64,000 nt of DNA, from assembly GCA_000004695.1 (NCBI GenBank), contig CM000152.2, positions 2,944,001-3,008,000 on the forward strand. Direction: 5' to 3'. This stretch comes from Dictyostelium discoideum (lineage: Eukaryota). Below are positions 1-3,600 of the stretch, in pieces (position 1 is the stretch's first letter; the number at the start of each line of letters is the position of its first letter). The notes beneath the pieces were generated by a model that was given only the letters and a program-made list of their open reading frames with translations, had not been told where the DNA came from and ran no database searches. The position numbers and the translations under genes were made by a program.

Positions 1-3000
1 TCTGATCTTGCACAAAGTATACCTCTCCATGCATAAATTGGTTTATCTTCAACAATAAATGTAATATCTTTATATAATGGATTATTTACTAAATATGACA
101 TATCTCTACCTAATGAGCACATTGGAATTTGATTATCATTTGAATTATTATTACTATTACTATTATTACTACTATTATTATTATTAGTGTTATTATTGTT
201 ATTATTATTATTTGAATTTATATTTTTTAAAGCTCTAATTTTCTTTGATAATAAATTCATTAAAAGTTTTGGAGATTTATGAATTTCAGCATTATTTTGT
301 AATAGATAAATGATACAAAGGATATCATTTTTTTTAACTGCTTCATGAATTGCGGGTGTTGAATTAAAGTAACCATCATTTACATCAGCACCACGACTAA
401 CTAAAAGTTCTTGCATCTTTAAATTACCATTAACTACAGATTTATGAAGTGGTGTTTGATGTTGATTATCTAAACTAAACAACTCTGTTGTCTTATCACA
501 ATAATCCAATATCAATTGAGTTATATAATATTCATTGGCTGAAACTGATAAATGTAATGCATTTCTATTATCTTTTGTAAAAATGGTTGGATCTGCTCCT
601 TTCTCTAATAATAATTTTACAAATGATCCTTTACCTCTAATAATTGCTTTATGTAATGGTGTAAATCCATCTTGATCAACTATATTAATTTTTAATGGTG
701 TAATTGATTTCTTATTACTATTATTATTATTACTATTTAATGATGATGATGGAGATGATGATAATACTGCTGATGATGATGATGATGTTGTGGTTATTAT
801 TGGTAATGATGACGATGATGGTGTTGTTGTTGTAGACTGTGAATTATTTTGTTCAATATGATCATTTCCAGTATAATCATTATTATTTTCAGATGATACA
901 TATTCTAAATTATTATTATTATTATTATTATTATTATTATTATTATTATTATTATTATTATTATTATTATTATTATTATTATTATTATTATTATTATTAT
1001 TATTATTATTATTATTATTATTATTATTATTACTATTACTATTATTATTACTATTATTATTATTATTAGCATTTAATAATTCATTTGAATTTCTTTTAGT
1101 TCTATTATTAAAGGATATGATTGGACAAGGTTTTTTATCTACATTTTTATCACTACAACCATATTTAACCAAAAGTGAGAGTAATTTAGGATCACCTAAA
1201 AACACAGCCCAATGTAGTGGTGATCTACCTTGTTTATCAGCTAAATTTAGATCGGCACCCCATTGAATTAAAGTTTCAACACACCACATTCTATTGACTC
1301 TAATTGCCAATTCCAATGGAGTAACTTTTGAATTAGTTTTAGCATTTACCAGCGCACCATGTTTAACTAATAACCTTGCGACCTCCAAATGACCATTCAT
1401 TACGGCTTTATGCAATGGTGTATAACCTTCGTAATCTTTACAATTGATATCGGCACAACCAATAGTTATCAATACTTCTGCGGTTGGTAAATCACCATTA
1501 TAAGCACACCAATCGATTGGTGTTCTACCACGAGAATCGGTTATATTTGGATTGGCACCCAACATCAATAACAATCTAACTGTATCATAGAAACCTCTAT
1601 ACGATGATAAATGTAATGGACTTAATCCCCAATCACTATTGGTTTCTCTATGTTTCTTTTTTGTGAAATCATTTACAATCTCCATTTGTAACTCTATAAT
1701 TATTGAATCATCAACAACTTTTAAAAATCCACTACCATTTGAATCATATAATGATGATAATTTCATAAATTGTGGAAATCCCCAATCTTCAACATTTTCT
1801 TTAAATCTTTTACCTTCAACTTTTTTTAAAAAAAAAAAAAAAAAAAAAAAAAAAAAAAAAAAAAAAATGATAATTAATATTTATATTTAACTTATATTAT
1901 TATTATTATTATTATTATTATTATTATTATTATTATTATTATTATTATTATTATTATTATTATTATTATTATTATTATTATTATTATTATTATTATTATT
2001 ATTATTATTATATATACATACCTTGTCTTGTAAATTTTGTACCATTTTTTTGATCAATTAATGAAAATTTAAAACTAACTAAAAAGAACCAATCTGGTGG
2101 TAATATTGATTTATCAGCTACTTTTAAATAAACTGAAAGATTGTTACCACCATTTTTACCTTTTGGATAGAGGGCGATTGTCCATCTACAATTACCAACT
2201 TTAAAGATAGGACTAGTTGCACGTTCTTTCATAGCGGAAACATTATTGATTTTCCAAGTGTAAATTGAAGTTTCATCATTTTGATAGGAACTATTATGTA
2301 AAACCTCGATTTTAAATTCAACCAATAAACAGTCATTCAATAGCCAACCTGATTTCTTATCTTTTAACATCTCCTTCTTTAAGATTTGAGAGAACCCCAA
2401 ATCCGTATGATTTCTATGAAATCTATGAGCCAACACTTCTCTAATGATTTTCTTTGATTGATCGAATTGATTGGTGATTGTGAATGTGAAATTGGCCATA
2501 TGCGACCATCCCTCTGATAAAGACTCATAATTTGCCACCTCCAAATACAGCGATAGATTATCGTCATCTTTTGAACCACGCGGATATGCCACGAGTTTCC
2601 AAGAGAATCCACTCACTAAAAAGGTGTTACTCTGAATCTTTCGATCCTTAATCTTTGAGAAATTCTCAATCTTCCAATTATAAATACCCGTGCCATTGCT
2701 TATGGAATAGGTCAGTGGTAAACCTGGATTCGATGGTAGCTTTTCATTGATATCGGCACCATAGGAAATCAATGGTTTCAAACAATCTTTCCAATTATTT
2801 TGAACTGCATACATCAATGGTGTATAACCTTCATGATTTTTCATATTAACATTCACTTGATTATTAGCCAACAATCCATTATTTGATGCATACTTTAATA
2901 TTGCCTCTATTGAATCTGCATGACCAAAAAATGCTGCTTTATGTAAACATCCATCACCTTTCTCATCTCTTTTATTTATCTTTTTCCAATCTTTTTTTAA

Positions 3001-3600
3001 TAATTTATTAATTAATTCTGTATTACCTTTTCTAGCTGCTTCAATTATTTTTGATGTACTAGTTTGTTGATTATTTACACCACCATTATTATTATTGCTA
3101 TTATTATTATTATTATTATTATTATTATTATTACTATTACTATTATTACCATTATTACTATTATTTAAGGTTGATCCTGTAATATTAACATTCGTACTAT
3201 TATTAATATTATTTAAATTCGTATTGTTATTATTAATATTGTTAATATTATTATTATTATTATTATTATTATTATTATTATTATTATTATTATTATTATT
3301 ATTATTATTATTATTATTATTATTATTATTATTATTATTATTATTATTATTATTATTACTATTATTATTGATGTTATTTATATTACTATTACTACTACTA
3401 TTGTTGTTATTGTTGTTGGGTATTGAAAATCCAATGGTAATATTACTATTATTATTGTTGTTATTATTTATATTATTACTATTATTAATGAGATTTATCG
3501 AGTTTGCATTATTATTATTATTGCTATTGCTATTACTATTGCTATTGCTATTGTTCATATATCCAGAGGAAGATGGTGATGACGATGCACTGTTTGACAT
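1..3600 (-). CDS. Ankyrin-repeat / double MATH (TRAF-like) / ankyrin / BTB-POZ protein. The 3' end is partial and runs off the window start. Proposed exons: 2022..3600 and 1..1819 (partial), joined over a 202 bp intron at 1820..2021.
   Basis: The track ORF 2008..3600 has a poly-N N-terminus, ankyrin repeats (GYTPLMYAV, GCLHKAAFFGH) and two MATH domains (FSWKLVAYPRG...LSLYLEV; CRWTIALYPKG...LSVYLKV). Its last codons read straight into a canonical donor (CAA G|GTATGT). The acceptor AAAAAAG|TT at 1820/1819 keeps the frame as ...TRQ-VEGKRFKENVEDWGFPQFMKLSS.... That frame continues on the minus strand through more ankyrin repeats (GYTPLHKAVMNGHLEVARLL; TPLHKSVVNGN) and a BTB core (DITFIVEDKPIYAWRGILCARS) near position 1. 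The intron consists of the (AAT)n repeat and A-rich sequence. Confidence 0.55.

Follow-up and report, generated by a model that had tools for sequence, protein, structure and literature searches.

We analysed a 64,000-nucleotide (nt) stretch of the Dictyostelium discoideum genome (GenBank assembly GCA_000004695.1, contig CM000152.2, positions 2,944,001 to 3,008,000 of the forward strand), referred to here as the window and numbered from 1 at its first letter. At its left end, the window very probably holds the 5' three-quarters of a single minus-strand gene with two exons and one 202-nt GT-AG intron; its product is an ANK-MATH-MATH-ANK-BTB protein and a putative cullin-3 receptor. Read without splicing, the gene begins as a 530-amino-acid (aa) minus-strand open reading frame (ORF) that runs from an ATG at 3600 to a TAA at 2010-2008 and ends in the tail G-M-Y-I-stop. 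A preliminary description, made from the letters alone, had proposed that this ORF runs into a GTATGT donor at 2021 and continues from an in-phase acceptor at 1820, with the methionine of an internal MKLSS motif as an alternative start. All of these coordinates hold on the minus strand, and the methionine in question is Met545, with its codon at 1766-1764. The features of the locus are listed in Table 1; the repeat boundaries of the first ankyrin block were set by eye.

Table 1. Features of the ANK-MATH-MATH-ANK-BTB gene and its neighbour, in window coordinates
Feature	Position	Strand	Details
Exon 1	2022..3600	minus	ATG, 526 codons and the first base of Val527; identical in locus L004 of GCA_054883475.1
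Spliceosomal intron	1820..2021	minus	phase 1, 202 nt; GTATGTATATAT-(AAT)38-...-T40-AAAAAAAG
Exon 2, 5' part	1..1819	minus	another 1045 nt past the window edge to the stop codon
Asn/Ser-rich N-terminus		minus	aa 1-180; within exon 1
Ankyrin block 1, ~3 repeats	2713..3051	minus	aa 184-296; Pfam Ank families, conserved in orthologues
MATH1	2299..2688	minus	aa 305-434; Pfam MATH_2, 109 bits, positions 2-136/136
MATH2, exon-1 part	2023..2265	minus	aa 446-526; has Y491 and F510, equivalents of SPOP Y87 and F102
MATH2, exon-2 part	1668..1819	minus	aa 527-577; VEDWGFPQF; D538-W539-G540-F541 equivalent to SPOP D130-W131-G132-F133
Ankyrin block 2, 5 repeats	1134..1631	minus	aa 590-755; Pfam Ank, Ank_2 and related families; orthologue alignment
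Asn/Ser/Thr-rich low-complexity insert	699..1091	minus	aa 770-900
Ankyrin block 3, 4 repeats	273..680	minus	aa 907-1042; Pfam and orthologue alignment
Pre-BTB linker and first ~25 BTB residues	1..131	minus	aa 1090-1132; IPMCSL resembles SPOP VPECRL
Med11 homologue DDB_G0280109	4262-4693	plus	exact match

At the junction, the donor reads CAA G|GTATGT with its GT at 2021-2020, and the acceptor AG lies at 1821-1820, after a run of 40 T and then AAAAAAAG, with exon 2 following from 1819. Joining 2022 to 1819 in phase 1 forms the codon of Val527 from G + TT. The intron is 97.5% A+T (2.5% GC) and contains the repeat that had been described as an (AAT)n intron, here (AAT)38, as well as the T40 run; exon GC is ~26%. 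In the frame of exon 1, the repeat gives one TAA stop after another, and read-through would therefore be unable to extend the protein. Once the splice is made, the frame is open for 606 codons down to window position 1, which would be expected by chance with a probability of ~1e-26 (~9% stops per random codon at 22% GC). Eighteen GT..AG pairs leave the ORF open, yet the orthologue sequence is reproduced solely by 2021/1820; the 17 others were rejected, as each removes or changes residues conserved among the orthologues.

Exon 1 covers the Asn/Ser-rich N-terminus, the first ankyrin block, MATH1, and MATH2 as far as the middle of its sixth strand (5.5 strands), while the window part of exon 2 supplies the remainder of MATH2, the second and third ankyrin blocks, linkers of low complexity, and the beginning of the BTB domain. 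The 530-aa ORF had been read as an ankyrin protein with two MATH domains, and of these the ankyrin repeats and MATH1 stand, while MATH2 is incomplete until exon 2 is added. Unspliced, MATH2 matches positions 2-86 of the 136 in Pfam MATH_2 (66.5 bits) and positions 1-72 of the 113 in Pfam MATH; spliced, it matches positions 2-135 (101.1 bits) and 1-113, respectively. The intron thus interrupts MATH2 mid-strand. An AlphaFold2 model of the MATH pair (mean predicted local distance difference test score, pLDDT, 82.7; predicted template modelling score, pTM, 0.71) has two complete eight-strand sandwiches, and the splice junction, between model residues 230 and 231, falls within the strand at 226-237. 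When the pair was compared with solved structures by Foldseek, the best matches were the SPOP MATH domain and USP7 TRAF domains, with target-normalised TM scores of ~0.8.

A protein search returned seven proteins (P0001-P0007) of 856-1032 aa with 42-59% identity, covering 95-97% of the query except for P0006 at 53%, and all seven carry Ank, MATH, and BTB Pfam domains. They include PPL_07904 of Heterostelium album (P0006) and an ORF from a Trinity transcript labelled 'complete'. The orthologues are gapless across the junction TKFTRQ|VEGK, save for P0007, which lacks the Val, and the VEDWGFPQF that follows the junction is invariant. Two orthologue contigs of ~3 kb are nearly one uninterrupted ORF each, which is consistent with their being transcripts, although their sample type is unconfirmed. 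The D. discoideum protein is longer than its orthologues, at 1480 aa, because of Asn-rich inserts. One of these, the insert at aa 770-900, has no counterpart in the non-dictyostelid orthologues, and a similar one is found in Heterostelium; an Asn-rich linker also lies between the third ankyrin block and the pre-BTB region.

The Heterostelium album genome (GL290990.1) offers a direct comparison of intron positions. There, a 67-nt intron (locus L001, 4313-4379) falls in the same Val codon, again between the first and second bases. The public model of PPL_07904 (942 aa) goes directly from ankyrin repeat 1 to MATH2 and omits MATH1, yet an uninterrupted frame at L001 3262-4311 encodes both a complete MATH1 and the ankyrin repeats that the model skips, with 65% identity to the window protein; the public model is likely to include a false intron. 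A second Heterostelium intron of 70 nt, phase 0, lies at L001 4550-4619, after ...RKKFK and before the second ankyrin block. At the equivalent site in D. discoideum (window ~1650-1630), coding is continuous.

The preliminary description had suggested comparison with Dictyostelium gene models, and the outcome is consistent with the splice by span and length. A locus fetched around Med11 from assembly GCA_054883475.1 (L004) contains the window, with window position 1 at L004 5756. The gene call adjoining Med11 spans L004 4711-9345 on the minus strand and has a product of 1480 residues. Its span of 4635 nt minus the 4443 nt needed for 1480 codons and a stop leaves 192 nt, which is the length of the intron in that assembly, and taking this intron out of the span gives a stop-free product of 1480 aa. 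The public call is therefore consistent with the 2021/1820 splice. At 192 nt, the intron in GCA_054883475.1 is 10 nt shorter than the 202 nt of the window: the T-run is 30 nt there and 40 nt in the window (1828-1867), while (AAT)38 and both exons are identical. The T-run may vary in length as a homopolymer polymorphism, or the discrepancy may come from sequencing or assembly. A 10-nt length change, which is no multiple of 3, would not be tolerated if this stretch were coding.

A single spliced gene across 2021 to 1820 is supported by the restored MATH2, the collinear orthologues, the intron conserved in Heterostelium, the uniqueness of the splice pair, the 1480-aa call, and the 10-nt difference in intron length, six independent lines of evidence. 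They bear out the proposal of one spliced gene in the preliminary description. Two points weigh on the other side. The 40-nt exon-exon junction had no match when scanned against metagenome contigs, and an exact look-up of the full 1480-aa product in the protein collection gave no entry, so that the public model was matched by span and length rather than residue by residue. The unspliced 530-aa ORF, too, had no exact match on record, as would be expected if annotators had spliced the gene. The D. discoideum product also gave no self-hit or Pfam record in the protein collection, in which neighbouring D. discoideum proteins are present; the collection that was searched apparently lacks the 1480-aa protein.

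The BTB domain starts at ~aa 1108, well beyond the end of MATH2 at aa 577. Further ankyrin repeats followed by a BTB core had been predicted downstream of the splice, and the repeats were found. For the BTB, the ~43 residues of this region in the window gave no Pfam match on their own, and the domain could be recognised with the help of the orthologues and the L004 DNA. D. discoideum DNA past the window (L004 4711-5755) completes the BTB, which then scores 62 bits in Pfam. It is split by an Asn-rich insert of ~130 aa, located between YLYTGEIESLSL and FEDYIQLFIAANRF and present in none of the orthologues; with the insert removed, the score rises to 70 bits (positions 6-109 of 110). The last ~80 residues of the D. 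discoideum protein are also Asn/Asp-rich. The nearest solved chain to the BTB/3-box region is SPOP, residues 180-330 (E = 1e-16), including the 3-box helices, followed by KLHL and KBTBD proteins, and the BTB of the Heterostelium orthologue has the same closest solved relative. In the SPOP alignment, an L-K-E motif stands opposite M233-E234-E235, and the 3-box helices are covered. A hydrophobic-x-Glu motif is reportedly the contact with Cul3. Judged by this alignment, the domain is an SPOP-type BTB with a predicted hydrophobic-x-Glu motif and 3-box.

The substrate groove of SPOP is formed by residues Y87, F102, Y123, W131, and F133. MATH2 aligns to SPOP 34-166 and keeps four of these five residues, with a Lys at the position of Y123. 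The equivalents of Y87, F102, D130, W131, and F133 are Y491, F510, D538, W539, and F541, and G540 also matches SPOP position 132. In MATH1, D400-L401-G402-F403 is found where SPOP and USP7 have DWGF, and each of the six orthologues with a MATH1 domain has the Leu as well. Since the Trp-to-Leu change is conserved, it suggests a different specificity of MATH1 rather than decay. The best sequence match to MATH1 (E = 6e-8), and also a top fold match, is the N-terminal TRAF-like (MATH) domain of USP7/HAUSP; USP7, however, has a protease domain and the DWGF motif, whereas the D. discoideum protein has no protease domain and reads DLGF in MATH1.

Human SPOP and Caenorhabditis elegans MEL-26 resemble the D. 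discoideum protein in carrying MATH N-terminal to a long-form BTB and 3-box, and SPOP, which is the best match to the BTB region in the PDB, also shares the IPxCxL pre-BTB linker and the MATH2 residues given above. SPOP and MEL-26 have one MATH domain, whereas the D. discoideum protein has two, with 3 ankyrin repeats in front. The full protein has twelve ankyrin repeats, 9 of them between MATH2 and BTB, where they span ~510 residues; in SPOP, by contrast, MATH is joined to BTB by a short linker. Further differences from SPOP are the Leu in place of the groove Trp in MATH1, the Lys in place of Y123 in MATH2, and the Asn-rich insert in the BTB. The protein is therefore SPOP-like in its parts and a variant in its architecture.

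The preliminary description had called this arrangement unusual, which is fair in that it differs from the one MATH beside BTB of SPOP; the combination was, however, recorded for D. discoideum in 2005 and recurs in several related clusters. The Figure 5 legend of Stogios et al. 2005 (PMC1257465) counts, for D. discoideum, two proteins that join MATH and BTB domains with ankyrin repeats, and the paper describes the BTB-ankyrin group as heterogeneous, with no canonical arrangement. The D. discoideum product shares with that group the presence of ankyrin repeats and BTB in one protein. We infer that the gene encodes one of the two proteins counted there; the text consulted gives no gene identifiers.

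To see how far the architecture extends, the MATH pair was used in an exhaustive profile search, which gave 99 cluster representatives at E <= 1e-30. The nine next-best new matches were scanned, and four of them (P0125, P0128, P0129, and P0130) again unite two MATH domains and ankyrin repeats with a BTB at the C-terminus; the other five have multiple MATH domains, and one of these five also carries an ICP0-binding domain of the USP7 type. The ANK-MATH-MATH-ANK-BTB order of D. discoideum is shared by Heterostelium PPL_07904, P0001-P0005, P0007, P0125, and P0128-P0130, and its recurrence in the four new matches makes it a small family rather than a one-off. The members seen so far come from dictyostelids and from entries of eukaryotic transcriptomes and metagenomes. 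When the MATH pair alone was run in a word-indexed protein search, the output was two Raphanus MATH proteins and none of the known orthologues; this was taken as a retrieval failure, and the profile search was used in its place. P0125 (1179 aa, profile E = 2e-142) additionally has a TPR repeat at ~655-688, between its ankyrin blocks.

The most likely role of the protein is that of a substrate adaptor for cullin-3. By analogy with SPOP, dimerisation and docking on Cul3 through L-K-E would fall to its BTB/3-box end. MATH2, which retains all but one of the five aromatic residues in the SPOP groove, may bind short linear degrons, while MATH1, with the Trp-to-Leu change in its groove, may have lost its peptide specificity or acquired another. 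The 12 ankyrin repeats could keep the substrate-binding end apart from the Cul3-binding end and offer an additional docking surface between them. For the family as a whole, we put forward tentatively, as a possibility just short of an even chance, that its members are cullin-3 receptors in which substrates are read by two non-equivalent MATH grooves, one SPOP-like and one with the conserved Trp-to-Leu change, held far from the Cul3-binding BTB by ankyrin solenoids, in a recognition geometry unlike that of SPOP. Several features count against the proposed function: the Lys at the Y123 position of MATH2, the missing groove Trp of MATH1, the large BTB insert, and a MATH-BTB spacing unlike the rigid SPOP unit.

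It is also conceivable, though unlikely, that the protein is no cullin-3 adaptor at all, with the BTB serving for self-association and the MATH and ankyrin domains acting as a scaffold in another pathway. SPOP, KLHL, and KBTBD proteins are Cul3 adaptors, and it is to these, SPOP first, that the BTB/3-box is nearest among solved structures, with the hydrophobic-x-Glu motif and 3-box kept, which argues for the adaptor role. The scaffold reading draws on the ~130-aa BTB insert and on literature searches, some of them with identifiers of neighbouring genes, which found no functional study of the gene. It also draws on the variety of roles served by BTB domains, as described in PMC1257465.

Two further readings concern the gene structure. 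The first keeps one gene and has the intron sometimes retained, or the next AG (1815-1814) used, giving a truncated 530-aa ANK-MATH isoform or the loss of Val527-Glu528. The acceptor at 1814 is in frame too, and the intron is long for the species and consists mostly of simple repeats; yet Glu528 is invariant in the orthologues, the motif VEG or VES is present in all but the Val-less P0007, retention runs into TAA codons and leaves a broken MATH2, and no evidence was found for either event, which together make such isoforms very improbable. The second, raised in the preliminary description, posits two adjacent genes, a 530-aa ANK-MATH-MATH protein ending at 2008 and an ANK-BTB protein starting from Met545 (~1766), and although an in-frame TAA does close the first ORF with an ATG downstream, sequence comparison effectively excludes it as the least probable of all, since the first protein's MATH2 would be cut at 86 of 136 positions and the second would start inside the beta-sandwich with its last two strands, the orthologues are all continuous, the intron position is conserved, the public call is a single 1480-aa product, and the 202-nt gap, at 2.5% GC, leaves too little space for a terminator and a promoter.

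The single spliced gene preferred here is not new: a gene call consistent with it is already public, and its combination of domains has been in print since 2005. The splice and the multi-domain architecture were nonetheless rightly predicted from raw sequence. As an uncharacterised relative of SPOP in an amoeba amenable to genetics, the gene could also be used to address how tandem MATH domains and an ankyrin spacer affect cullin-3 substrate selection.

The neighbourhood of the gene was also evaluated. Two ORFs of the window, each a single exon, translate exactly to the D. discoideum AX4 proteins DDB_G0280109 (the Med11 homologue) and DDB_G0280115. In window 3601-4693, Med11 is transcribed divergently from the gene and lies beyond a spacer of 661 nt with 10.6% GC, and in Heterostelium album a Med11 neighbour lies in the same divergent orientation (L001 2054-2486). 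No tRNA genes were found in the window. On both strands of window 839-1072 and 3095-3707, poly-Tyr, poly-Ile, and poly-Leu ORFs of up to 192 aa are listed; these were rejected as genes, being other-frame or antisense readings of coding (AAT)n tracts.

Finally, the N-termini of the orthologues fall into two kinds. P0002-P0005 and P0007 start with MGEGNSK or MGEGPSK, and P0001 starts with MGSNGAS. The consensus for N-myristoylation is MGxxxS, which the non-dictyostelid orthologue N-termini fit. Those of D. discoideum and Heterostelium instead have no Gly2 and open with long tracts rich in Asn and Ser.

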